Assembly (NCBI GenBank): GCA_010405405.1
Contig: MU004236.1
Location: 2,114,070 to 2,178,069 of the forward strand
Direction of reading: 5' to 3'
Length of the DNA: 64,000 bases
From: Microthyrium microscopicum
Taxonomy: Eukaryota
The position numbers and the translations under genes were made by a program. The stretch's first letter is position 1, and each line of letters opens with the position of its first letter. The notes beneath the pieces are model-generated. The model did no database searches, had not been told where the DNA came from, and saw only the letters and a program-made list of their open reading frames with translations. This document shows, one piece after another, positions 3,001 to 59,175 of this stretch.

Positions 3001-4965
3001 AATAAAAGCGTAGTAAGATATAAATATTATTATCTTAAGAGATACTAAGAGAATTATCTATAAGAATAAAGAAAATTTACTTTCTATTATATATAAGTTC
3101 TATATAAAGCTATTTAGTATAAAGATTAGTAATAAGAATACTATAAAGACTCTTCTAAAATACTATATAAAGAAGATTAAATATAAGTATAGAAGTACTT
3201 TAGTATAAAGAATCTTAAGACATAATATTTAGACTTTAATTAATTAGTTAGCCTTAGGTAAGTTACTTAGATTAGATAGTCTTATATTAAAGTTTTATAA
3301 GTTACTTTAGAAGTAAATTAAAAACTATAAAGATAGAAAGAATACTACTTTAGTCTTTTACCTTTTAGAAAGAGTTTATAAGAAAATTTAAACCTAGAAA
3401 GTACTATTAAAAGACTTTACTAAAGGTATATTAGCCTTTCTATATAAGAAGGGTAATAAGTTAGATATTAGGAATTATAAACTATTTTCTATTATAAATA
3501 TAGACTATAAGATATTTATAAATATACTTATATATTATCTTAATAAGGTATTNNNNNNNNNNNNNNNNNNNNNNNNNNNNNNNNNNNNNNNNNNNNNNNN
3601 NNNNNNNNNNNNNNNNNNNNNNNNNNNNNNNNNNNNNNNNNNNNNNNNNNNNNNNNNNNNNNNNNNNNNNNNNNNNNNNNNNNNNNNNNNNNNNNNNNNN
3701 NNNNNNNNNNNNNNNNNNNNNNNNNNNNNNNNNNNNNNNNNNNNNNNNNNNNNNNNNNNNNNNNNNNNNNNNNNNNNNNNNNNNNNNNNNNNNNNNNNNN
3801 NNNNNNNNNNNNNNNNNNNNNNNNNNNNNNNNNNNNNNNNNNNNNNNNNNNNNNNNNNNNNNNNNNNNNNNNNNNNNNNNNNNNNNNNNNNNNNNNNNNN
3901 NNNNNNNNNNNNNNNNNNNNNNNNNNNNNNNNNNNNNNNNNNNNNNNNNNNNNNNNNNNNNNNNNNNNNNNNNNNNNNNNNNNNNNNNNNNNNNNNNNNN
4001 NNNNNNNNNNNNNNNNNNNNNNNNNNNNNNNNNNNNNNNNNNNNNNNNNNNNNNNNNNNNNNNNNNNNNNNNNNNNNNNNNNNNNNNNNNNNNNNNNNNN
4101 NNNNNNNNNNNNNNNNNNNNNNNNNNNNNNNNNNNNNNNNNNNNNNNNNNNNNNNNNNNNNNNNNNNNNNNNNNNNNNNNNNNNNNNNNNNNNNNNNNNN
4201 NNNNNNNNNNNNNNNNNCTACTCTTTAATTTAAGGTAATAAAAGAGCTACTATTAGAGATTTATAAGTATACTATAAGAAGTAAAGAGAAAAAGCTAGTA
4301 CCTTTAATATAGTAACTATTATTAGTTTGTCCTATTTAATAGCTATTATTAAAAGTATTAACTTCCTTAAATTACTCTAAGTATAACTTATATAGAGTAT
4401 TAAGATATAATATATAGATATTAAAACTAAGATAGATTCTATAAGGATATATAATCCCTAGATAATAAGAATAGTAAAATCTTTTAAAGAACTCCTTAAA
4501 GTAATAAAAAAGTAAGAAGTATTATAAAAGAAATAGTTTAGTATAAATAAGTCTATAAACTTATTCTATATTAAATAACCTATTACTATAAATAAGATAT
4601 TATCTATTCTTTTCTAGTTCTATTTCTAAATTATAAGTATAAGAAATAGTAGAGCTAATACTTATAGCTTTAAGTCTTTTAATTAGCTATAGTATAATAA
4701 GGTAAAGACTATTAGAAATATTTAAAACCTAGTTTAATAAAAAGTTATTATATTTAATAACTATTCTTAAAGATAGGTTAACTTTATACTATTAGTAATA
4801 AAAAGATTCTATAAATAATTTCTACTATAGTAGAGAAACTTATTAAAATAAAGAGAATTAGGGAACTTAATACTTTTTACTTATAATTAATATTTTCTAA
4901 AGTTTTATAATAGTAATATAATTTATCCTTTAGCTATTATTAACTTTAAGAAACTATACTAAATA
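1..4965 (+). mobile_element. RIP-degenerate non-LTR retrotransposon (L1-like LINE), 5' part: ORF1 zinc knuckle, APE endonuclease, RT
   Basis: 701-742 reads YKKY*SLKY*IIRY (de-RIP CKKCQSLEHWIIRC, CX2CX4HX4C); ~2338 *LNYLF (RLDYLF, endonuclease); ~3257 GKLLRLDSL (GKSPGLDGL-like); 3422-3515 KGILAFLYKKGNKLDIRNYKLFSIINIDYKIF (RT start). The RT core probably falls in the N-gap. Confidence 0.8.
3553..4217. other. Assembly gap (N run)
   Basis: Run of N characters. Confidence 1.
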
Positions 4966-38370: not shown

Positions 38371-41300
38371 ATGCGAAGACGACCTTCCGCGTCCACCACC
38401 GATGAGGAGGACGATAGCCCTTCCACCGCGAATACCTCAAAATCCTCCGTCTCTCCTCCATCTACCTCTCCCGATAGACCTGCGAAAAATACTAGATCCA
38501 AGCAATACCTTAATCCTACACCTCCTCCTGCTTCAGCCAAGCGGAAACAAAGTCGGCGGGCCGACTCTTCAAAGCAGAACTGGAAGGCTTCGACGATAGC
38601 ATCTTCAGATGGGCTCTCTCTTTCCGAACGCGACCTGACCTCATCACATATGGCGCAATTCAGCGGTATGGCTAAAAGAGCCAGGTTACGAAACCCTTGG
38701 GCCATGTCATGGCTGTCATTGGGCACTTTGGTCACTGCCGTGACCTTGGTACTGTGCCTATACCAGTCCTTTACTTTGCGCCAATTGGATCCAAAGGGAG
38801 GCAGCATGTCATACATGGCCAGCTCATTTGTGAACTTTGGCGATTTTGATACAGAACACACGCGCTTTGCGACCAAGTACTCGTTACATTTATACCGCGA
38901 ACTTGGAGTGGACGAAGATCCTCGAGTAAGACCTACAGGCGCATTGGAAAGTATTGGCAACTAACTCTTTTTAGGTCAAAGGTGTTCCAGTTCTGTTCAT
39001 ACCAGGAAATGCTGGCAGCTACAAGCAGGTTCGATCACTTGCCGCCGAAGCCGAATATTATTTTGATCAAGAAATTCGACACGATTCAAGCGCTCTGGAT
39101 GCTGGAAAACGCGCTTTGGATTTCTTTACCGTTGACTTCAATGAGGATTTTACAGCCTTTCATGGTCAAACGCTACTTGACCAAGCCGAATATCTAAATG
39201 ATGCGATTGCTTATATACTATCGCTATATCACAACCCCGAGAAATCGAGAAAGGACCCAAAGTTACCCGATCCGAGTTCCGTAATCCTCGTTGGACATTC
39301 AATGGGTGGTATCGTTGCTCGTACCATGCTCACGATGCCAAATTACCAAACAAATTCCGTTAATACCATAATTACATTATCCGCGCCTCACGCAAGACCT
39401 CCCGTCACCTTTGACTCCCAGATGGTACAAACATACAAAACAATCAACGACTACTGGAGGCGATCGCATTCGAAAGAATGGGGCATGGATAATCCTCTAT
39501 GGCACGTCACGCTAATCTCAATCGCTGGTGGAGGATTAGACACCATTGTACCGTCTGATTATGCTAGCGTTTCTTCCCTAGTTCCAGAAACCCATGGATT
39601 CACGGTTTTCACGTCGTCGATACCCAATGTCTGGACTGGCATGGATCATCTTGCTATCACATGGTGTGACGAATTCCGTAAAACAGTAATCAGGGCAATA
39701 TTTGACGTATTGGACGTTGCTCGTCCAGCCCAAACGAAACCTCGCGGGGAACGAATGAGGGCCTTTAAAACGTGGTTTTTGACTGGCTTGGAAGATATTG
39801 CGGAGAAAAGTCTACCGCACACTGGTAAGGCTGATAAGCGCCATGTATTTCATATTTCTAACCATATTACAGAGCCCAAAACTCTTCTCACACTCGAGGA
39901 CGGAGGAAATACCATGCTCGCGCAAGGCGAAAGACTAGTCATCCGCGCTCTTGGCCATCAAAGTGGCACCAAGGCCTATTTTCTACCCGTTCCCCCTCAA
40001 GGCACTTCAGAAGGACGAAAGTTTACTATGCTTACAAGCGCGCATGTCGATCATCAAGGGCACAGTGATCAGATCGAGATTCTATTCTGCAGTGTGTTTC
40101 CTCTCCAAGCTGGACACTCGGAAAGTTTGTTCTCCATGAACCTGGATCTTTCTGGCGATGCACATGGATCCGGATCCACTCGATTGGCGTGCAAAAATGG
40201 TGGTATGGATGCAATTGCTCTACCTGCATCAACATCGCATTCGCAATTCCCGTTCGAGAAGACTCGTCCTTATACGTACTTCCAATACGACCTGGAAACC
40301 CTCGCCGAGCATCAGTTCATTGCGATTGTCGACAAGGCTGAAACTGTCAGCTATGACTTTTTGATCGCCGAGTTCAGCGCACGATCTGAGTCTCGAGTAT
40401 TCTCCAATGTGGATACTCAACAACTCTTGAGCTCAGGCGTGCATTGGACACTTCCCGCAAATCGTCCTATGCTGATGGATATCAACCTCCCTGCCTTGGA
40501 GTCCAGCCTTTTCTCCTTCCATCTTTCCATCTCGCCAAACAACTGTGGCGCCGAAACTTTGTTTCGACCATTGGTTCGACAATACATATCTGATGTTTTC
40601 GAGTCCAAATTTTTCGTCAACGTTGAAGAAGTAGATGTGAACCTGCACGGTGTTGCGCCATATATGCCACCATCAATGAGAGCCAAGGACAAACAGCATG
40701 GACTATCATTCCAACTTTGGTCTGATCCTACGTGTGCAACACCTCTCAATGTTTCTCTTACTTTAGACATTCCCGGAAGTTTCGGAAAACTCTGGATGCG
40801 CTACAGAACTCTATTTGCTACTTTCCCGTTGGTGATGGTCGCATTAGTACTGTCCCAGCAATTCCGAGTTTATGACGAATCTGGACTGTTCATGAGCTTT
40901 GCTGAAGGTTTGAACTTGAGTCTTCAGCGTGAAATTCCAGCTCTCCTAACATTCATAATCTTTATAATTGCGGTCATGTCAAAATCATCGACAACCTTGG
41001 AGCAGAATGGCGAATTGATGGATTGGTTTGCTCAATACCGCAGCAATGCCACCGAGTCAATGTCCGACTACACTATGAACAACCTTCTCTTTGGCTCCCA
41101 TGACCCCTTTTTCTGGTTCCTTGTCCCGGTTTTCGGCGTAATATGCACTGGCCTTTGCATTGCCATTAATTATGCTATCCTCATTGTCACCTATCTCTTC
41201 ACATTACTGCTTGCTCAATTGATGTCCCAGAGTAAAACCGAGGACTCAAGGTACGTCAGATTTACCGTTCTTAAAAAACATTGCTAATAACATAACAGAA

Positions 41301-41908
41301 AGCAAGCTAACCCCTCTTTTGCCATCACATCAACAAAGCAACGAGTGATCACAACTAGTCTATTACTGGCTCTCGTTGCAACCGTTCTACCCTACCAATT
41401 CGCCTATCTCGTGCTCTGTATAGTCCAAATCGTCACGACGATCCGGGCGTGGAGACTATTACGAGAAAACCGGACTGACTACACCTATAATTTTTACAAC
41501 TACTCGCACTCCCTCTTAGTCCTAATGATATGGATCCTACCAATCAACCTTCCCGTCCTCGTGGTTTGGGTTCGCAATCTTGCCGTCCAGTGGCTTACAC
41601 CTTTTTCCTCTCATCATAACATCCTCTCAATTGTACCATTCATCTTTCTTGTGGAAACAGCAGCTACTGGCAAACTAGTGCCACAAGTCTCCTCGCGGCT
41701 ACGATATGTCACCCTGACAACTCTTCTCGTGTTGGCATTCTACGCTGCCGCCTATGGCGTGAGCTATGCTTACACTCTTCATCACGTCGCCAACCTCTTC
41801 TGCGCCTGGCTGGTTCTAGTCCTCTGGTTCTCTGGAAAACTGGAGATCGAGAAGACCATTGATAACGTAGTTTCCGGACACGACGAGAAGAGCAAAAAAC
41901 GACCATGA
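38371..41908 (+). CDS. BST1: GPI inositol-deacylase (PGAP1 family), about 4 exons
   Basis: KYSLHLYRE, VPVLFIPGNAGSYKQVRSLA, DFNEDFTAFHGQTLLDQAEYLNDAI, VGHSMGGIVAR, multi-TM C-terminus with WILPINLPVLVVWVRN. Confidence 0.95.
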
Positions 41909-46211: not shown

Positions 46212-49200
46212 ATGGAGCAGTGTCAGGCTCTCAACCACCGCTTAGAGCCATGTACCTCACTAGTGGCAGCAGCGGACAAAAAGTTTTGCCCCAAGCACTA
46301 CAAAGTGTGCTATGGTAAGTTGTCAAGGCAAGTAAACCATATGAATAATCTGCTAACCGATCCCTCAAGACACGTACATTAGTTACAAGCGATCTAATGC
46401 CGAACTCGATTCCTTGCGGAACAATTTGCCATCGTATTTCAATCCTCCCATAATCACCATTGAGAATGGTAACTATCATGGCCTCAAGCTCAACGACTTA
46501 AATGTGATCCATGAGTACCTTCATCGTCGACACGCCCTTCTGGACAAAGTGATCCGAGCCCGAATGCTCCACTCCACTCGGTTTTTTTCTTGGACTCTGC
46601 ATGACCAGTCCACAGAGCCTGATGGTCATGCGAAATACGTCGAATATTTGAAGACCGACAAGAACTCAACTCTGCGAGCTTTACAAAATCTCCTTGCTAG
46701 AATTGACGAGGTGACGTGGGAAAACGAACAGTGGTATGCATGGGTTAAGGAGCAGCAGCAACTTGAAGCTGTCTTAGAAGACGAGGAACTTCGGAAAGTG
46801 AAGGACGAAAACAAGTTATACCAACAGCACCTGAAGGCTGTGAAGATATTTCTGTCTAAGAGTCACCGAAAGCAAGAGGAGAGAAAGAACGAGGACATCG
46901 AGGAGATTTGGGAAATGACCATGACGACGCGTTTTGGCAGTAACAAGGAGACTTGGGATCTGGTTGAAGCTGCCCTCGCTGAAGAGCGAGCCGATTGTAT
47001 CGAAATGATCAAGCTCTTTCTCTGGTTGGCGGATGAAGATCAGAATCCTAAGCCACTGGTAGTGCCACCGGTCAATCTCCTCGAACATTTCCATCTATCG
47101 AGTACCGCAGCTTCTCAGAAAGACGAAGTATCCCAGAGGGACGAGACCTCCCGAAAAGAACACACCGACCAACAGGAAGAGGCTGCCCAGGAAGGGAAGA
47201 AAAACAATCCAAGAGGAAAGAAGGCAGGCGAGAAGTCTGCATCAAAGGAGCCTCATCTCGTCGCCTCATGTAGCAAGTCCGACTCCAAGGGCCATAGCAA
47301 CCTACCTGGTAAAGACGATCCCGCCAAATCAGCCGTTCCGATTCCCAAAGACAGCATAGAATCCCGCCACGATATGCAGAAGCGTTTAGAAAGCGGTGTC
47401 CGATCTCATTGCGGCTATAAGGACGTACCACCAATGAGACCTGATCAAGTTGAGGAAGAACTGGCCAATGTCCAGCAGATAAAGAAGCTGCTCTTTTGTC
47501 GGCACCTCCTTTCCCACGGCTCTTTGTTTCGCATTGCAGTGAAAGCCATGAGCATCGAAGAGTTCCTGGCAAACAAAGATCTGGAGGTCTCAGAGCTTCA
47601 AAGTCTTTGCCTCCGTTTGGTTAATCCTTCATTTGAGGAAATACGGGATGCCTGCGCAGACTTTCATCGCGTCAACGATTCAGCTCCAAGCGGCGCTGAG
47701 AACCAGCTCGATTCCACAGGGAAAGATGTGACTACTAAAGTCTCTCATGGTCGCAAGGATTCGAATGCGCTAAATGTCCCAATGAAGTCTCCCAGCCTCA
47801 GCCAAAAGCAAGCGGCCCAGAAGGCCAAGCCAAAATCAGCAGGAGCAAAGACGCAGCTCACGGTTGTTGGCTTCTCAATCTGGAACCACGCGAGCGAGCG
47901 ATCGATGTCGAGAAAAGCATGGCTACAGTTCTCAATCTTGACCACAAACTGCGACTTCTACACTGCTATCGGGCTGTGCCGAAGCTGGGACGAATTTTCT
48001 GAGCTAAGCGTACTCTGTACTTCCGACTATTTTTTGAGCCCAACTTGGTGGCTGTGGTCTGCTCATGAATGGAACCTTGGATTTGGAAACTGGCGCAAAC
48101 TTGGGTTCATTGTGTTTGATGCAGAAAAAAATGCCCATGAACGCTGTTTCGATACCGAAAAGGACCAGAAACAGAAGAAGAAAAACAAACAGCAACAGGG
48201 TTATTGGATTCTACAGACGCGATCTTACATTGCTGCCTATGTCAAACGTGACGATCCATATACTCAGCGATTGATCGAATATCTTCGATTACAGCCCTCG
48301 CTCACTCAACTCCTGGTTCGTGATGCTGCCGACGGCAAGATCATAATATCTCCAATTCCGGATCAACTATGGCTAAGCCGGGAGAAGAAAGGTAGTGGCT
48401 TATCGTCCAAGCAAGACTGGAAAGTTTCGAAAAGTCTTGGGCCAGAGTTCTTCGCTCTGCAGGCTAGCAAACGAAAATGGAAGTTCAACTTCCACGAGTA
48501 CTATGAGGTTTACGTTCTGGATCCAATTCCTGGTCGAGATCTAAAATGCGAAGGCGGCCTTGAAGCCATGATTGGACGGGTATGTTATCAATCATTTTTT
48601 CTGGTGGTCATCACTAACCACTATGTAGGCGCTTGTCCATGCCTACCGCATCCGCAGCAATCTTGATTATATAAATTCTGACAAGAAAATCCTGGAGACA
48701 CTGTATCGAGACTCAACAACAGGACGTGCCATGGACAAAATCACCGCCGGCTGCGAAATATCTCTTTGGGATGAATCGCTCGAGTTCAAGGGGAAGCAAA
48801 CGGCATTCTTCGAGTCAGCTTATCTAAAAGAACTTGATAAGCAAAGACAGGACGGCAATGGCATATTGTGCCTTTCGCCCTGGTTCACCGAAACTGATGC
48901 TGAGGAGGAGTCCATTCTTTCGCAGCACAAACTGGACTCGCAACACACTTGGCCTGTTTTCCCCATACAAAACGACGCCGAATTTCTGCAAGCTTTGTCT
49001 CTATCCCAGCGAGACTCACAAATGCTTCAGAGCCGCGTCGCCGGGTATTTTGAATCATTTTCCAAATCGCAAAACCCAACTTTCTTAGCAGCTGTTGCAA
49101 CAGAAGGCTTTGATACAGCAATGAAAGTTTTGAGTTGCTGGAAAAGAATTGGCACAGACCAAGAGACTTACAATTGCTGCATCCGAGTTCTTCATCAGCT

Positions 49201-50536
49201 CCGAGACAAATATACTGACAGTATGATTATCATGCAATATATGCTCTCCGTGGTGAAGACTGCCAAAAGTCGCGATCTTGAAGCCAAGGTCTTTTGGGCA
49301 CTTGCAAACTACTTGATGGAATTTGGACAGCAGGCCTTGGGTCTAGTACTCCATGTGTGGACACAGATCAAGTTTGAAAATTCCATCGAACGCGAGGCAA
49401 AAGTGCTCACGTCAAACAAAATACGAGCTGTGAATTCTGTCTATAAATTCCAGTTACACCGCGCAGCGACTCTTCTCGACAAATCAAACCAAGAACGATT
49501 TGAGGCAATGCAAGCTCGCGTTCAGCTTTGGACTCGAAAAATCATCCCAATTTCAGGCCATATGGTCTATTGTATCGAGCTGCTCGAGAGACTGACGATT
49601 CGACCTCTCATGGACGCCTCTCGTATTCGTCTGGTCTGCGAGTGTTATGCTTCAATGATTCGATTCTTTCACGGCCCTTGTTGGGCAAGCTTTAGCAACG
49701 ACTATAGAATCCCACTGGAGAAAACCTACAAAGATAAGGCAGCAGATAACAAGCTCCGAACTGAGCAGCGTGAGCGAAGTCTCAAGCACCCTGTACAGAG
49801 AACAGGGTACGTCCCCGAGAACGCAATCAAAGCTCGTGAATTATATACGGATCCCCTGAACCAGATATACGTTGAACGAAAAGATTCCCCAGCAGCAGAT
49901 GCTGTAGTTCGACCTGTCGTTGCTACTCTATACGCAACAGGTTTGATTCGACCTTCCCAAAAATACTGGGATCGCGGAATTGGAGATGTATTTGGGTGCG
50001 CGGTCTCTCTGACCGAACCTGGACTGTCGTCGGACTTTGCCATAGACTATAGCGTCGAACATACCGAGCCAGTGCTTTGCGATCTTCTACAATCCGCCCG
50101 AGATTTCGCCAAGGAGTATCCAAAGGCTCGATTTACTATTCTGCGAGTGTGGTCAATGGCATACCTCTATCCGGTAGCAATGGCTCTCGACATCTCTGAA
50201 AAGGTCGTCTTTGCGGACTATCAAGACCGAACCTGGGCTTTTGAACTTCTGCCGAAAGGACCATCTTTTGTGATGGGGCTACTTGACGATAATGTCGGTT
50301 TCTTGGCAAAACACCTTGTGAGCCGTCTTGGTCCGGACGCAGGCAAGATCGTCAACCGAGGAGATGTTGTACTTGTCATGGCAGAAGATGATGGCAAGTG
50401 CCTAGTCAACAGTGTGGTCACCTCTATCTCGCTTCAGTATTCCGGCTTTTTGGAAGTGGATCTGGACAACTCATTCATAAACGTCAACCTGGACTTCTTG
50501 ATTGACATGGATCCGAAATACCTTGGTGTGAATTAG
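46212..50536 (+). CDS. Uncharacterised large fungal protein (~1406 aa), 3 exons
   Basis: Exons 46212-46314, 46370-48579, 48629-50536 join in frame through canonical introns; N-terminal Cys/His motif CQALNHRLEPC...FCPKH; charged coiled-coil-like region; C-terminal domain RPVVATLY...RFTILRVWS...RTWAFELLPK...EVDLDNSFINV. Confidence 0.8.
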
Positions 50537-50631
50537 AGACAGATGAATCGTCGAAGGACTCGGCATGTACATACAGCAAGCGGTGGAGCAATCGAGTACA
50601 TTATTATATACAAAAACACAATTCTTCTAAA

Positions 50632-51582
50632 ATGTCTGGTTTCGAGCCCCCTGACGACATATTTTCTATAGGTATGGCGTGTCAAACATGCGCCGCGATG
50701 ATACTCCATTTCTCGGGTTCTTGCTGGGCTGAAGTAAGTGCAGAGTATACGCTCAAACTTGAAAAGTGTCCCGACGATGAAGCTGTTGGTCTCGCACTTC
50801 GGAAAGATCAGCTGGGCAGAAGCCAGAATCATCCCTTGGAGAGATCGGAGGAGGTTCCAGAGAACGCTGTGACAAGTCTGGGCGAATATTCGCAACCAGA
50901 TGTTCAGGTTTTCATGGAAAGTCGGAACTCAAGATTGGCAGACAGGACAACCCGTCCAGTCATTGCCCACTTGTATAAGGAAGGCCTTATCAAGTCTTCG
51001 TATGATCCCGCTCCTCCCCAAGAAACCAATCCGGCAATTGGAGTGGCGATTGCTTTAACCGAGCCAGGCCGATCGCCTGCCTTCGCCATCTCCTACAACT
51101 TCTCTGTTGTGAAGGAGAACCCCAACAATCTAGTTGAAGAAGCCAAGGCGTTTCTCAAACAGAATCCAGGGGCCCGCTTCTCTATTCTACGTCCTTGGTC
51201 GTTTTCCATGTTCTTCCCAGCTAAATTCGGCGAGGCGCTTCGCAAAAAAAGCACATTCGTCGACATGCCAGGACGAACGTGGGAGTGTGAATTCCTGCCT
51301 AAGGAATCGCCATACTCTGACTGGTACATGAAACAGAATGTGGAACAGGAGATCGAGCGCTACACGATACTACTGCCACAGGAACGTAGCAAGGTTCTCC
51401 ACCGACGCGATGTCATTCTAGTCATGGCAGAGAACGAGATAGATTGTCTGCGTGATACCATGAAGACTGCTTGTGCTCTTCAGAGTAGCCGCCTCTTTGA
51501 GCTCGATGTGAACAAGAGCTTCTTCAACGTTGATGCCGAGTTCCTGGAGAGGATGGATGCGCGGTACCTCGGAGTGGTTTGA
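50632..51582 (+). CDS. Stand-alone C-terminal-domain paralog of the upstream gene (316 aa)
   Basis: Intact ORF aligning by eye to the last ~310 aa of the upstream protein (RPVIAHLY, RFSILRPWS, RTWECEFLPK, DVILVMAE, MDARYLGVV vs MDPKYLGVN). Confidence 0.7.
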   Translation: MSGFEPPDDIFSIGMACQTCAAMILHFSGSCWAEVSAEYTLKLEKCPDDEAVGLALRKDQLGRSQNHPLERSEEVPENAVTSLGEYSQPDVQVFMESRNSRLADRTTRPVIAHLYKEGLIKSSYDPAPPQETNPAIGVAIALTEPGRSPAFAISYNFSVVKENPNNLVEEAKAFLKQNPGARFSILRPWSFSMFFPAKFGEALRKKSTFVDMPGRTWECEFLPKESPYSDWYMKQNVEQEIERYTILLPQERSKVLHRRDVILVMAENEIDCLRDTMKTACALQSSRLFELDVNKSFFNVDAEFLERMDARYLGVV

Positions 51583-52759: not shown

Positions 52760-53348
52760 TATGGTGTCATAACATGGTGATCGCAAACGTTTTTCAACGA
52801 AACCCCAAATTGGAAAACTAAGATTCCCAAGAAGTTTGAAGGACGATAAGAGGTGAAGTTGATGATAGGAGCTAGGATAGAAATATCTTTATGGCCCTAT
52901 CTACATGTAGTGCGCCATGCCGGCTATCCGCCCTCCGCCTCAATGGTGGCCAGGGTGCTGGTAGTAGTTTCTATTATTAAGAGCTCATGATCCACGAGTA
53001 ATGCATCTAATGGCATGTGGCATTAGTGGGATCGAACATAATCTTTTGCAACAACAACAATCGAAGTCTTGATTTTTCAACTCAAGACGACTCTGGGCAG
53101 ACATTGCCAACTTAATATTCATGACGTTTCCCCGCACTCTACGTCAGCCTTGTGACCAGCCTGATCCGCAAAAAGCAACCACCAATCATTTTCCACGACC
53201 AGTCATCGACCCAAACAGTTTGATGCAAATGGCAAAGACCTTTCTCCATGATTGTTAGCAAACTCGATGAATGTGGCGAATTCTTCCGGGGATAGTGACC
53301 TTCTAGCTCTTTCGCAAGGCAGGTCCATCTACTCCGTCATCTATCACT

Positions 53349-54554
53349 ATGGGGGACAATAAAGATGCGGATGCCTTTCCATGGCATCTAGGCGTATTCG
53401 ATGCTCATTGCCACCCAACTGACATCAATGCTTCTATCGCAAAAATTCCAGACATGAAGGCTCAAACATTGGCTCTCATGGCAACACGTGGGGAAGATCA
53501 AGAAATGGTTCACGAAGCAGCTCAGAATCTCGGTCCCAAAGGCACCACCCTCGACAAGAACGTTCGAGTACTGCCATCATTTGGCTGGCATCCTTGGATG
53601 GCTCACTTACTATTTGATGATACTCAATTTGATGGTCGAACGACACTCACTCAGGATGAAAGGAGAAAGCACTTTGACTCTGTGCTCACGCCTGCTCCAT
53701 CAGATGACTCGTTTGTCAAGGCACCCGAGGAACTGGTCGCGCTCTCAACATATCTCGGCCAGCAACGCGAGTATCTACTTCAACACCCCCTCGCCATGGT
53801 TGGCGAAGTAGGAATCGACAGGAGATTCCGCATACCCACACCGTGGACAGCAGAAGAGTTCCAGAAGCGAACAATGCTACGAACTGGCGGCTCAAGAGAA
53901 GGTCGCGGGCTGTCTCCTCAAAGTGTATCCATGGAGCATCAACTCAAAGTTCTAGAAGCCCAAGTACGTCTGGCTGGTGAACTGGAGAGACCTGTAAGTG
54001 TCCATGGAGTACAAGCTCACGGGGCATTGTTCGACTTCTTCAACAAACTATGGAAAGGGCACGAGATAGAGAGCAAAACCAAAGCAAAACGAAGAAGAGC
54101 AGAAGCTCTAGAAGCCAAAAACGTCGCTGCTCAAAAGGACGATGATTCACCCCCAGCGACTGAAGAGACTAAGGCGGATACTCAAACTACTACAAAGCCG
54201 TTTCCACCACGGATATGTCTTCACTCCTACTCAGGACCAGCCACGAATCTGAAACAATATTTCAAATACACAGTTCCCAGCAAAGTCTATGTCTCCTTCT
54301 GTATGGAAATCAACTTTGCTACAAATGGTGGAGTATCGAAGGCAGAAGAATGTATAAAGTTTCTGCCGGCCGATAGAATCTTGATAGAAAGTGATTTGCA
54401 TAGAGCTGGACCAGAGATGGATCAGAAGCTAGAAGAAATAGCGCGAAAGATCTGTGACCTGAGAGGTTGGAGCCTTGAAGAGGGCGTCAAAATTCTCGGC
54501 GAGAATTGGAAAAGCTTTGTATTAGGATCGACAGATAAACAACAGGAGAAGTAA
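53349..54554 (+). CDS. TatD-family metallo-dependent hydrolase (Cut9-interacting Scn1-like)
   Basis: FDAHCHP, FGWHPW, VGEVGID, VSVHGVQAHG, CLHSYSG, ILIESDL; single 401-aa ORF. Confidence 0.88.
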   Translation: MGDNKDADAFPWHLGVFDAHCHPTDINASIAKIPDMKAQTLALMATRGEDQEMVHEAAQNLGPKGTTLDKNVRVLPSFGWHPWMAHLLFDDTQFDGRTTLTQDERRKHFDSVLTPAPSDDSFVKAPEELVALSTYLGQQREYLLQHPLAMVGEVGIDRRFRIPTPWTAEEFQKRTMLRTGGSREGRGLSPQSVSMEHQLKVLEAQVRLAGELERPVSVHGVQAHGALFDFFNKLWKGHEIESKTKAKRRRAEALEAKNVAAQKDDDSPPATEETKADTQTTTKPFPPRICLHSYSGPATNLKQYFKYTVPSKVYVSFCMEINFATNGGVSKAEECIKFLPADRILIESDLHRAGPEMDQKLEEIARKICDLRGWSLEEGVKILGENWKSFVLGSTDKQQEK

Positions 54555-55258
54555 TACAAAAAGCTTCCTGTGGTATTCTGTGATATTGTTTCAAGGCCAT
54601 TGATAGCGTACGAATGTTCTTAACAGAGCGTATTATGCAAACACGCCACTGGTCAGTGTCCTTGTAGTTTGTCAAGCTCTGTATCATGGAATTTCTGGAA
54701 AACGAACCTTGAAAGAATGGGCAAATGAGATCTGTGATAGTAAGGACAATGTAAACAAGACTGTTCTATCCAATGAGGAGGTATTCTAAAATTGCTTTTC
54801 CAGGGGATATTCTGCAACACCATTTGCATCACGAAGTGGGTCTACCAAAAACAGATGACGATAAAACCTGGCTTGCATAATGATCTACCCGTACGCACGA
54901 GCTGCATATTTTTCTTATTGGTAAGATGCTATCCATAGAGCTTTATCCTGTCACGCTTGTCAAGCCGAATGTTTACATAACTGACACTGATGGTTCTAGA
55001 AAAGGAACAATGCGCTGAACATTTTCGATTCAGATGACTTCTGATCTCAGGGCCCGTGATGAAACATTGCAAGAGAGTGCTCTGAGGTTGTAATGGCGCT
55101 TGCAATGTAACTCCCAGAGGTCATAAAAGTCAGATATCCAGCCAGCGTGTGAAGGCTTGATTCTTACCGTGTCTTTACGATATCATATTCTACTCTTTAC
55201 TTTCTTGTTCATATAGAGCGTAGCTCATTTACTTCTTGTATTTACTACCATTTTCAAT

Positions 55259-56159
55259 ATGAGATTCCAAACATTTGTATCTATTGCGCTTGCCGCTGGC
55301 TTCGTTGCTGCTCTGCCTACTCCTCAGGAGGATGTGAACTCCATCCTCGCAGCTCTCGAGGCAAACAGGTAAGCTCTAAGACTCGAGTATTTGCGACCAT
55401 CTACTTACATGTGTAGCCCCGAGGATGCCAGTGCCGCACGTGGTGGTCCGAACAAGCGTCAAGACGACATCGCTTCTGTCCTTGCAGCTCTTAAGGCCAA
55501 CAGGTACATATCAAACCACCCATGATCCGGGGAAAGCAAGATAGCTGACAGACTGTAGCCCCGAAGATGCCAGCGCCGCTCGTGGTGGCCTAAACAAGCG
55601 TCAAGGTACGCAAGCACTCAGAAATACAAGTTCAACATCTGACAGAGTGATAGATCTCAGTGATATCACATCACTTCTCGGGGGCGGAGCCGCCGGAGGC
55701 GCTGGAGGTGCTGCTAATGCGGATCCTCTTGATGCCATCACTGGCCTCATCACTAAGCGTCAAGACGACGTTGCTTCCATTCTCGATGACCTTGAGAAGA
55801 ACAAGTGAGTACAACTAAGCAATACGTCTCTTTGCATTGCTGACATGTGGCAGCCCAGATGATGCCAAAGCCGCCCGTGGTGGCTTGAACAAGCGTCAAG
55901 ATGACATTGCCTCTGTTCTCGCTGACCTCGAGAAGAACAAGTGAGTATGGAAGAGCAGTACAAGATCGCATTGCTGACATTAAGTAGCCCAGATGATGCT
56001 CAAGCCGCCCGTGGTGGTTTGAACAAACGCCAGGACGACGTTGCCTCCATTCTCGATGATCTTGAGAAGAACAAGTAAGTTGACTCGAGCCAAAAAATGT
56101 TTACATTTCTGACATGCATCAGCCCAGATGATGCCAAAGCCGCCCGCGGGGGATTGTAA
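55259..56159 (+). CDS. Secreted Kex2-processed repeat protein (peptide precursor), 201 aa, 7 exons
   Basis: Exons 55259-55368, 55417-55503, 55559-55605, 55654-55804, 55854-55940, 55988-56074, 56123-56159, all with GT-AG introns and branch-like sites, total 606 nt in frame; signal peptide plus KR-separated repeats. Confidence 0.88.
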
Positions 56160-56808
56160 AGGCTAGAGAAGGTGTTTAAGTCCTCGCTATCCTTGAGAAA
56201 ACAAGTAAGTAGATGCCCTGTACATTGGCAGCTGAGATCTAGAGCTAATGGTCTTAGTCCTACTGATTTTGCTATCGTTGGCTCGATTTAGATGGAGAGG
56301 ATGGGAGCATTAGATATTGGTGAATGATTATTCGCACAGATACCTAGCAGTCTGCAATATATAGGCCAGAAACGATAGCCTTGACTTTGGAACTCAATCA
56401 AAGAATGGTCATGTGAAAGTGATATGCCCCTTTTCATCAGATCAAGGACGCGACTGACTACCAATGGCAATCGATGAAGGTATGTAGTTACAAGTAAGAG
56501 CCTGTTCAATAGGCATACGACTGATGCCAAAATGAGTATGAAAAGTGAATGGACAGCTCGCAGAGCTAGTCTGGTCGAATTCGTGGAATGAAGTATCGTG
56601 AAAAGGAACGTTTAAACTGTCCTTGGTATTGATTGGCCAAAGGCTTCATCAGACAGAGACCCTGTAAAATGCACATCGGAAGCTGCAACTTTTTTGCCAT
56701 CACCAAAAAGATCTTTTGAATCTTTTCCTATCCAGCCCACAAGCAGAAGATTATCTCTGTTCCGCACTACTTCTACCATATCCAGAATTCCAGCAACTCT
56801 TTATAGCC

Positions 56809-57248
56809 ATGGCCTCCGCCGTGGCCATCGGATTCGGCATTGCCGCAGCCGCCTTCTTCGTGAGTCCACCATCTCAATACATTCAACCGGCATATACTAA
56901 CATCCCCAGGGCCGAGCCGGTCTTGTCGCCATGCGCAGATGGCGCGGTGGCACTGGTGTACTCGCGCGCGGATACTATAAAGGCGGCTTCGAGCCCAAGA
57001 TCAACCGACGAGAGGCAGCGCTCATCCTCGAACTTCCGTACGTCCCTACCCATCGCAGTGCGCAGATCTATGGCGCAAACAATTGGAGAGGATACTGACG
57101 GGTAAATAGTGAACGGGGTATCAATAAAGATCTATTGCGCAAGAAGCATCGCCAGCTCATGCTGCTGAACCATCCGGATCGCGGCGGTAGTCCATATCTT
57201 GCTAGCAAGATCAACGAGGCCAAGGAGTTTCTAGATAAGGCGACGTGA
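56809..57248 (+). CDS. PAM18: Mitochondrial import motor J-protein Pam18/Tim14, 3 exons
   Basis: [19 protein letters not shown]...[32 protein letters not shown]. Confidence 0.93.
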
Positions 57249-57793
57249 AATACGGCGGAAAGAAAAGCTGTACGATCATGTCGGATGTATGGTTGATTTG
57301 GATTGTCGTTAGATGCATAGCGTGGTGTTTGGTGGGTTTTATTGCATAGCATGGCAACTTTGCTATATTACAAACTCTGCTCTGTGAATGGGATATGTCA
57401 TTGAACACATCATATTGTATTCGGCATTTGATAATGTCGAGATTTTACTATTTCCCTGTTGTGGGTTCTCGCATTGTGACAGCAAACAACTTCTTGCGAC
57501 CATACGACTCTATAAAAATGTGAACCAAGTGCTACTTTACAAGCTCCATGCTTGCTTTTGATTTCCATGAAGACCTTTTCATATATTTGTTCCCTCAGAG
57601 GTATCAATGTTGGAACATTTAGTAGAAGGAGTGACAGTATTTTTGTTGGCGCATCTTGGTGGAAATGGAGGCAGTTGCATCATGCGGCAGCTTCACTGCA
57701 CGCGCGATGTTCTTGAGTACGCGCCGCCAACCTTTTTCTTCTCTGCGCAACATTCCTCAGATCTTCAAAGCTGCCCCATACTTCGCTCGCGCA

Positions 57794-59175
57794 ATGCAAT
57801 CGGGTAAGTCTTCTACTCCTACGTCTTCTTCATCACATACTAATGTGGTATCGTAGTTGAAGAAATCCTAGAGCAGGCTGCAGGTGGCGGCTCAATCCAG
57901 AGGTACACCGTACACTTTTACGACTCGATGCGCTTTGTACTAACAGATGCAGCGATGACTGGTCTCGAGTCCGCGACTTTATCTTAAACAGAATAGAAAC
58001 AGCAGGTGCTCTGCAAGACTCATCCTTGATTTGATCACTGACAGCAACAGCTTGTATCCGACGAATTTCCTTCACCTCCGTCTTCCCTAACCTCACCACC
58101 ACAACCGCCAGCGCAAGCGATATCCTCCTCCGAGACGGACCTCAACAGCTCGCCAACGATAACTAGAAGCTCTCGCGTGACGCCAACACAAGAATTAGAG
58201 TCAACGGATAAGGAAAATGCCCCTCCGCAGGTCACCTCAAATGCAACCTTGGATTTCTTCGGACAAGCTCAGTCGAAGCCATCACCATTAGATATTGCCA
58301 AAGGCCTTCAAGCCGACATTCGAGATAGCTTGTCTAGAGGGTTTCCTACATACCCTCCCCATACCATCCAGCGACTTTCAGAATTAATACTCTGGCCGAA
58401 GCGAGAATATCGGTACCTTCCCGCTTATCTACAAGCCCTCAATCGCGTTGTGAGCGTAACAAGCAATACATCGATATTTCCTTTACCACATCACACGGCT
58501 CCTCAGTCAGCGACAGCTGGCTTATTAGTCAATGGAAATATTGACTCGGCATTAGGAAGCGATGAAAGCCTAGGTGGTGCTCTTCTCACTCCAATTCCAT
58601 GGCTGACAGCAAATTCGCCGTCAACAGATGCAGATCGCGACCTACAGGATACGGCCCAGCGACTACATGACCAGCACGCCATCGATACACCGAGCTCTAG
58701 CGATACTGTGATGTCAAATGGCGAAATTACACCTGAGAGCTCGACCGACGAACCTGGATCGCCTTCTAGCGTAGAGGCCGCTCTACGGGCTGAAGGTGCT
58801 GTCACACAAGGTGAGCTATTGCGCCTAGAGCAAGAGGCCGGTGTGGTGCCTGTTCCTTCAAGACATGGAATCATGGATGATGATTTGAACATTATGGACA
58901 CGGCTGACGACGATGCGTCAGATGGACATGCACCACCGACTACTACCGCTGCAGCAGAAGAGTCTGAAGAGATTCCTCATGCGCGAGGCCCGGAGGAGAT
59001 TGGGGTTGAAGATATGGGGCCTCAATCCGGCGCCCCGGGTGGCGTGGAAGGGATTTTGCGAGAACACCAAGCTCATGAGCCGACGCAAGGGCAGACAGCG
59101 GAACAGGAGAGTGATACGGGCATGGACGTGGACACTAAGGCAGAGGAGACAGCGAAGGAAGCGGACACATCTTAA
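57794..59175 (+). CDS. Protein phosphatase 4 regulatory subunit R2-like protein, 4 exons
   Basis: FPTYPPHTIQRLSELILWPKREYRYLPAYLQALNRVVSVTS matches the PPP4R2 core; acidic low-complexity tail; three short 5' exons inferred. Confidence 0.75.

Follow-up and report, generated by a model that had tools for sequence, protein, structure and literature searches.

Kex2-processed repeat proteins (KEPs) of fungi are a known class with hundreds of types, defined by architecture and not as a homology family. According to the relevant passages of two surveys, a KEP has at least three similar fragments bounded by KR, RR or KK (PMC6339444, PMC7329392); repeats make up at least 15% of the protein in Le Marquer et al. 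2019 (PMC6339444), and in Umemura 2020 (PMC7329392) a repeat unit has at least 8 amino acids and no repeated sequence exceeds 100 amino acids. Processing by KEX2, KEX1 and STE13 and pyroglutamate on KEP-derived peptides are reported from peptidomics in other fungi in the available text of PMC9769878, which gives the functions of most such peptides as unknown. Most KEP types are narrowly distributed or isolated, as stated in a passage of PMC7329392. Here we describe a gene of this architecture at positions 55259-56159 (plus strand) of a 64,000-nucleotide stretch of DNA from the fungus Microthyrium microscopicum (contig MU004236.1), referred to below as the window. As read from its sequence, the gene probably encodes a secreted repeat protein that is cut by Kex2 into five acidic linear peptides of 26-27 amino acids and one Gly-rich linear peptide of 35 amino acids.

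The gene is like the KEPs of Le Marquer et al. 2019 and Umemura 2020 in having a signal peptide, by inspection, and at least three KR-bounded units that fill most of the protein. Its six fragments, five alike and one Gly-rich, are 26-35 amino acids long, inside the published limits, and the five related units of about 27 amino acids make up about two thirds of the 201-residue product; relatives have a Ste13-type dipeptide behind KR. An earlier reading of this DNA, made from the letters alone (the sequence-only reading), had taken the signal peptide and KR-delimited repeats for KEP architecture, which agrees with the published in-silico criteria. The main-type units of the window gene are each split by an intron, a structure not mentioned in the main text of PMC7329392 or PMC9769878.

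Other described precursors are alike in part. Yeast alpha-factor and the alpha-type pheromone precursors of Pezizomycotina share the maturation route proposed here (signal peptidase, Kex2, Kex1 and Ste13), but the predicted products of the window gene have 26-35 amino acids and are acidic and helical, their core is conserved across classes, and they have no known link to mating. Rep1 of Ustilago maydis and Ece1 of Candida albicans are likewise polyprotein precursors of several peptides of tens of residues, as described in part of PMC9769878; their products are longer than pheromone cores and are not short cyclic cores, a likeness of architecture. Compared with them, the window peptides are strongly acidic and hydrophilic, and so do not suggest membrane lysis or hydrophobic surface films. 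The precursors of ustiloxin and phomopsin (dikaritins) also combine a signal peptide with KR-delimited repeats, but the window gene has no DUF3328 neighbour and its units are much longer and lack aromatic residues.

Gene structure and splicing

No single open reading frame (ORF) runs across 55259-56159 on the plus strand. The ATG lies in a stop-to-stop piece of 51 amino acids, and the longest plus-strand pieces have only 87 amino acids, in keeping with the earlier remark that the gene is invisible in an ORF track. An in-frame stop (55214-55216) lies upstream of the start codon. Exons were placed by locating the exon peptides of the sequence-only reading in three frames and were then joined by coordinates. 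The seven joined exons comprise 606 nucleotides and encode 201 amino acids plus a stop, with five KR sites and six units; the translation is identical to the protein proposed earlier, and the six short canonical introns claimed with it were recovered. The introns measure 48, 55, 48, 49, 47 and 48 nucleotides, all six are bounded by GT..AG, with a branch-type motif, CTGAC or CTTAC, shortly 5' of each acceptor. Their G+C content is 0.38-0.47, compared with 0.56 in the exons.

Splicing was examined in contigs from public sequencing runs. Runs X1 and X3 are DNA, possibly the source of the window, and X6 is a metagenome. Run X5, whose RNA label is only a guess, contains 57% of the sampled words of the stretch; its contigs, which give no level, transcript ends or strand, were compared over window positions 53000-58000. 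The parts of the gene are as follows.

55259..55368, plus strand: exon 1, with the start codon, the N-terminal signal-peptide-like stretch (residues 1 to about 19-22) and the first half of unit 1; ends in phase 2
55369..55416, plus strand: intron 1, 48 nt, GT..AG, CTTAC; absent from an X5 contig, present in DNA runs X1 and X3
55417..55503, plus strand: exon 2, 87 nt, with the second half of unit 1, KR and the first half of unit 2
55504..55558, plus strand: intron 2, 55 nt, GT..AG, CTGAC; absent from an X5 contig
55559..55605, plus strand: exon 3, 47 nt, with the second half of unit 2, KR and a Gln codon; ends in phase 1
55606..55653, plus strand: intron 3, 48 nt, GT..AG, CTGAC; absent from an X5 contig
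55654..55804, plus strand: exon 4, 151 nt, with the 35-residue Gly-rich unit, KR and the first half of unit 4
55805..55853, plus strand: intron 4, 49 nt, GT..AG, CTGAC; X5 loose end at 55804
55854..55940, plus strand: exon 5, 87 nt, with the second half of unit 4, KR and the first half of unit 5
55941..55987, plus strand: intron 5, 47 nt, GT..AG, CTGAC; absent from an X5 contig
55988..56074, plus strand: exon 6, 87 nt, with the second half of unit 5, KR and the first half of unit 6
56075..56122, plus strand: intron 6, 48 nt, GT..AG, CTGAC; X5 loose end at 56074
56123..56159, plus strand: coding part of exon 7, with the second half of unit 6 and the TAA stop at 56157-56159

The X5 contigs show no differences to the window and have exactly introns 1, 2, 3 and 5 removed. 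They break at 55804 and 56074, each time with a 16-letter loose end that is the start of a later exon: the one at 56074 fits exon 7 alone, while the one at 55804 fits exon 5 and exon 7 equally, their first 16 nucleotides being the same. GT..AG segments of the neighbouring genes are missing from X5 as well, and all introns are retained in X1 and X3, so X5 acts like a transcriptome assembly. The locus is an expressed, spliced seven-exon gene of a filamentous ascomycete. Junction reads had been named earlier as the check on the gene model; the spliced contigs bridge four of the six introns and point across the other two.

A conserved family of relatives

A profile of the window exon units (41-column alignment) matched five proteins with E-values of 2.5e-20 to 8e-4, the best being P0001, and a family profile was built from these five. 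Searched among 1.84 billion proteins, the family profile matched 50 cluster representatives at E<=1e-3; 33 of these reach E<=1e-10 and 10 reach E<=1e-30. A 90%-clustered collection yielded 43 proteins. When the 87-residue read-through ORF was used as the query among longer proteins, no relative appeared among up to 8000 candidates, a set that Gly/Ala-rich words had probably crowded, so this is weak evidence. Three matches are not counted as ordinary members. P0015 (1252 amino acids) joins a P-type cation ATPase to repeats at residues 1104-1251 and is probably a merger of two neighbouring genes, and P0051 and P0052 (E ~4e-4 to 9e-4) have unrelated domains and are probably false family matches. 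These three and the duplicates P0053 and P0054 are left out of the linker and unit counts below.

The 11 named members, which come from few genomes in two very large protein collections, are from Alternaria dauci, Coniothyrium glycines, Phaeosphaeriaceae sp. PMI808, Aaosphaeria arxii, Diaporthe australafricana, five Apiospora species and Gaeumannomyces tritici (EJT75726). We take the first four to be Pleosporales and the rest to belong to other orders, with Diaporthe in the Diaporthales. All 11 are annotated as 'hypothetical' or 'uncharacterized'. By these sequence matches the family has no name, is poorly annotated and is conserved in two or more classes of Pezizomycotina. The window gene belongs to it by a significant profile match and a common core motif. 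Pfam gave no match above its curated cut-offs (best E 0.014), NCBIfam one sub-threshold match only, the PDB a best match at E 0.4, and a protein atlas search no usable match. The sequence-only reading had not recognised the peptide family: it was right in that no characterised family matched, but the family is not private to this genome.

A total of 162 core units were extracted from 63 proteins. They follow the 22-residue pattern D-D-[LVI]-x-S-I-L-A-A-L-E-x-N-[NS]-P-[ED]-D-A-x-A-A, with L, N and E as the consensus at the variable sites, and single positions are conserved in 88-100% of units. Unit 1 of the window protein shares 19 of 22 core positions with units of P0058, P0009 and P0063, one of these being a Phaeosphaeriaceae protein. 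The closest match of a unit lies within its own protein in only 27 of 152 cases, indicating that the core is kept constant across species and not homogenised within genes. Gly-rich units like the third unit of the window protein occur in the distant members P0020 and P0037. The number of units among members ranges from 2 to at least 5.

In 10 of the 11 homologous metagenome loci all units lie in one open frame, which sets the one-intron-per-unit window gene apart from them; the remaining locus, L010, has a single change of frame behind its first unit. P0027 and a few other database proteins contain single read-through introns at other positions.

Section 10 of PMC6339444 lists conserved motifs without this core, and six short core strings are absent from two supplement files of that paper. 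The accession EJT75726, the genus names Aaosphaeria, Apiospora and Coniothyrium and the strain label PMI808 are absent from Table S2 of Umemura 2020, which was searched for these terms and not for the accessions or genera (Alternaria, Diaporthe) of the other named members. Since that table gives accessions and no sequences, the lack of core motifs in it is uninformative. Full-text literature searches returned no description of the family. KEPs are mentioned only in passing in PMC8329847 and in a Zymoseptoria preprint. Six KEP genes of Fusarium graminearum have been deleted singly with no defect in sexual development, according to part of PMC10589705.

Dibasic linkers and predicted processing

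The linkers between cores vary in length and sequence across the family. Despite this variation, 60 of the 70 linkers between cores in 49 family proteins, not counting the window, contain [KR]R; 1000 composition-preserving shuffles gave a mean of 12.0 (sd 3.0, maximum 23). With the window included, 64 of 74 linkers are dibasic, nine others have a single Arg and one has neither. Dibasic sites kept in otherwise variable linkers suggest that the window peptides are released by Kex2. In 38 of the 64 linkers Gln comes next after the final dibasic site, and in several members a dipeptide stands between KR and Gln (AP-Q four times, EA-Q once and DA-Q once). An X-Pro or X-Ala dipeptide after KR is a recognised Ste13 signature in passages of PMC6339444 and PMC9769878. 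Several members also have KR and a tail of 2-3 residues after the last unit.

The N-terminus of the window protein is signal-peptide-like: Met-Arg, about 17 uncharged and mostly hydrophobic residues, V-A-A with small residues at -3 and -1, and then L-P-T-P-Q. Complete relatives have N-termini of like kind. In the window protein, two X-Pro dipeptides separate the first Gln from the likely signal-peptidase site.

Predicted peptides and structure

The six predicted window peptides carry net charges of -2 to -4, and Tyr, Trp, Phe and Cys are absent from all of them. The five peptides of 26-27 amino acids have a mean hydrophobicity of about -0.2 to 0.0, the Gly-rich peptide one of 0.34. The amphipathic first helix has a hydrophobic moment of 0.35-0.57, taken over 11 residues. 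AlphaFold2 was run on the relatives P0007 and P0020 with family alignments (pLDDT 72.1 and pTM 0.36 for P0007; pLDDT 67.5 and pTM 0.31 for P0020). In both models the helices, confident locally, are interrupted at N-[NS]-P, and no global fold is predicted with confidence; the Gly-rich unit of P0020 has a pLDDT of about 40.

Duplication, decay and signs of selection in the repeat array

A repeat finder reported a 64-nucleotide unit in 5 copies, spaced by 134-142 nucleotides and by 295 nucleotides across the Gly-rich unit. Exons 2, 5 and 6 are all 87 nucleotides long, are in phase 2 at both ends, and each encode the second half of one peptide, KR and the first half of the next. The exon unit is thus out of register with the peptide unit, and as a result every main-type peptide is encoded across an intron. 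The Gly-rich peptide is the only one without an intron inside its coding stretch; intron 3 is placed unlike the other introns, before this unit. The array has grown by tandem duplication of a segment of about 135 nucleotides, consisting of one 87-nucleotide exon and one intron of about 48 nucleotides. The repeat spacing and the comparison of exons 5 and 6 agree with the duplicated exon-intron units of the sequence-only reading.

Exons 5 and 6 are identical at 74 of 87 nucleotides and differ by 9 synonymous and 4 non-synonymous codon differences, while the introns between units align at only about 60% outside the branch-site region. In the metagenome run X6, two 151-nucleotide contigs overlap the gene in part; they show 10 and 3 differences from the window. 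Of eight differences listed, seven are exonic (six in exon 4, one in exon 6) and all seven are synonymous third-position changes; the eighth is in intron 6.

Downstream of the stop codon lies the trace of a further unit:

56160..56290, plus strand: 3' untranslated region (UTR) with a decayed extra repeat unit; its intron, 56205-56257 (53 nt, GT..AG), is still removed in an X5 contig

The decayed unit resembles the exon 5/intron 5 junction. Since it stands after the stop codon and its intron is still spliced, the array was once at least one unit longer.

Window positions 55701-55765, part of the Gly-rich unit, recur at least twice at a second locus on other contigs of X1 and X3. The copies there are 111 nucleotides (37 codons) apart, one is identical over 65 nucleotides, and loose ends enter the next unit, the KR-Gln junction being free of introns; similar loose ends are found in X5. 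The second locus is probably a paralogous precursor made of Gly-rich units.

Genomic neighborhood

The repeat gene has a TatD-type gene and a Pam18-like J-domain gene as neighbours. TatD stands as named in the sequence-only reading; the PAM18 call rests on a 45-residue exon fragment with an HPD motif, whose Pam16/DnaJ match is below the curated cut-offs. The domain scan covered 99 stop-to-stop ORFs of at least 70 amino acids between 42.8 and 63.5 kb of the window, in which the only domains found were TatD_DNase, PPP4R2 and BTB/Skp1_POZ; no DUF3328/UstYa or other tailoring domain was among them. At the 11 homologous loci, 40 of 62 ORFs of at least 130 amino acids were scanned, the other 22 being set aside as overlapping the repeat gene on either strand, and none of the 40 had DUF3328. 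The earlier observation that no DUF3328/UstYa or tailoring gene is near now extends to these two sets. Neighbours at the homologous loci include genes for an Asd-4-type domain, ATP synthase subunit c, ankyrin proteins, major facilitator superfamily (MFS) transporters and one sulfotransferase, and there is no synteny with TatD or Pam18 at any of the 11.

The Pleosporales-type loci L001, L003, L006, L008 and L010 have a common neighbourhood of their own, unlike that of the window. An Asd-4-like gene occurs at L001, L003 and L006, the gene for ATP synthase subunit c at L001 and L003, and a large ankyrin-repeat gene at L001, L008 and L010.

Two further introns lie upstream of the repeat gene:

54751-54803 and 54920-54998, plus strand: upstream introns, GT..AG, separated by a 116-nt exon; both spliced out in the X5 contig spanning 53000-55804

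This contig runs from the TatD gene through both introns into exon 1, and there is no long ORF between the two genes (window 54555-55258). The upstream introns may lie in a long 5' UTR of the repeat gene or in the TatD gene's 3' UTR. One contig spanning both genes is not proof of a single transcript, as overlapping transcripts of the two may have been joined by the assembler.

Elsewhere in the window, positions 1-22000 form an AT-rich block (G+C 0.15-0.26) with a strong dinucleotide bias of the repeat-induced point mutation (RIP) type. TpA/ApT is 1.66-1.75 in this block and 0.70 in 24000-64000, and (CpA+TpG)/(ApC+GpT) is 0.02-0.13 and 1.29, respectively; a run of N occupies 3553-4217. On the plus strand, 38975-41905 contains a PGAP1/Bst1-type GPI inositol-deacylase gene in two ORF pieces, with a PGAP1 match at E 1.2e-92, a second domain and a transmembrane domain. 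Three long plus-strand ORFs at 46357-51579 (769, 635 and 358 amino acids) probably form one large gene, with no Pfam match at E<=0.01.

Alternative explanations

The main rival explanation is that the gene encodes a secreted acidic protein, of helical repeats or largely disordered, which stays uncleaved and serves in the matrix, at the wall or in ion binding, the KR pairs being part of the repeat. Several observations favor it and weigh against processing into peptides. The AlphaFold2 helices of P0007 continue through the KR sites, which, if real, would make these sites less accessible; ten of the 74 linkers have no dibasic site; and the Gaeumannomyces protein has single Arg sites only. The peptide reading is further weakened by the guessed RNA label of X5, whose contigs lack level, ends and strand, and by the fact that we infer an extracellular signalling role purely from conservation and architecture. 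An uncleaved protein is, on the other hand, at odds with the position of the dibasic pairs at the ends of otherwise free linkers (60 of 70, against 12.0 +/- 3.0 in shuffles), with the Gln or X-Pro/X-Ala-Gln that follows them, with the KR and short tail retained behind the last unit of several members, and with a unit number that varies from 2 to at least 5. Nor do pTM values of 0.31-0.36 give any sign of a packed repeat fold. We regard the uncleaved protein as unlikely, though it deserves to be taken seriously.

The remaining explanations fare considerably worse. Dikaritin macrocycles need aromatic cross-link residues, and the predicted peptides have no Tyr, Trp, Phe or Cys; at 26-35 amino acids the helical units are also far longer than dikaritin cores. 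A precursor of cyclic modified peptides of the ustiloxin/phomopsin kind, a peptide made by the ribosome and modified after translation (RiPP) with its tailoring enzymes encoded elsewhere, is thus very improbable, even though the signal-peptide and KR-repeat architecture is the same and 22% of KEP genes have a DUF3328 gene nearby (a figure from part of PMC7329392): neither the 99 ORFs around the gene nor the 40 ORFs flanking the 11 loci contain a tailoring domain. The earlier judgement that linear peptides are likelier than a cyclic RiPP is therefore strengthened by the missing DUF3328 and aromatic residues. An alpha-factor-type mating pheromone precursor, for which the KEP architecture and the Ste13-type dipeptides behind KR in some relatives could speak, seems a shade less credible still. 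The alpha-type pheromones of Pezizomycotina have a short Trp/Cys-containing core, whereas the units here are 26-35 amino acids long, acidic and without Trp or Cys; moreover, a core near-invariant across two fungal classes is at odds with the divergence expected of pheromones between species. Least probable of all is a transcribed non-functional remnant with no protein product of consequence. The decayed unit in the 3' UTR does indicate an array eroding at its end, but the 201-codon frame is intact over seven exons, the differences are mostly synonymous, and the core is up to 19/22 identical to that of distant relatives.

The gene is best read as a KEP-type precursor, because, besides the in-silico KEP features, its family has an invariant core, linkers that vary freely but end in conserved dibasic sites with Gln or Ste13 dipeptides behind them, and a variable number of units. 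In the proposed route, the N-terminus would direct the repeat protein into the endoplasmic reticulum. In the late Golgi, Kex2 would cut behind each of the five KR sites and Kex1 would remove the basic residues. A Ste13-type dipeptidyl aminopeptidase would take X-Ala or X-Pro dipeptides off in some relatives, and in the window protein such an enzyme may remove the two X-Pro dipeptides before the first Gln. Each released peptide would start with Gln, probably cyclised to pyroglutamate, and each peptide of 26-27 amino acids would form two helices, the first short and amphipathic and the second rich in Ala, with a kink at N-[NS]-P in between. The peptides may act extracellularly as unmodified ligands of a conserved partner, as a signal or as protein-binding peptides, and not as cyclic RiPPs.

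Significance

Compared with most KEP types, the family has a core that is near-invariant from Pleosporales to Apiospora, Diaporthe and Gaeumannomyces, which argues for a conserved molecular target and makes the family a good candidate for peptidomics and knock-outs. Duplication of exon-plus-intron units hides the gene from ORF-based and many annotation-based surveys, and catalogues drawn from annotated secretomes probably under-count such intron-split small genes. With one intron per unit and exons out of register with the peptides, the gene is a clean example of array growth. Its wider interest lies in this growth by exon-plus-intron duplication together with a core conserved across fungal classes. 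A bolder and rather doubtful proposal is that the family represents an ancient peptide-signal system of Dothideomycetes and Sordariomycetes, largely missed by annotation, in which several copies of a near-invariant, acidic, pyroglutamate-capped helix-kink-helix peptide and a Gly-rich companion, found again in distant members and at the second locus of this genome, would act on a conserved receptor or enzyme. If this were true, the same-phase 87-nucleotide exons would let the number of units change in this lineage, by exon duplication or skipping, with the frame intact.

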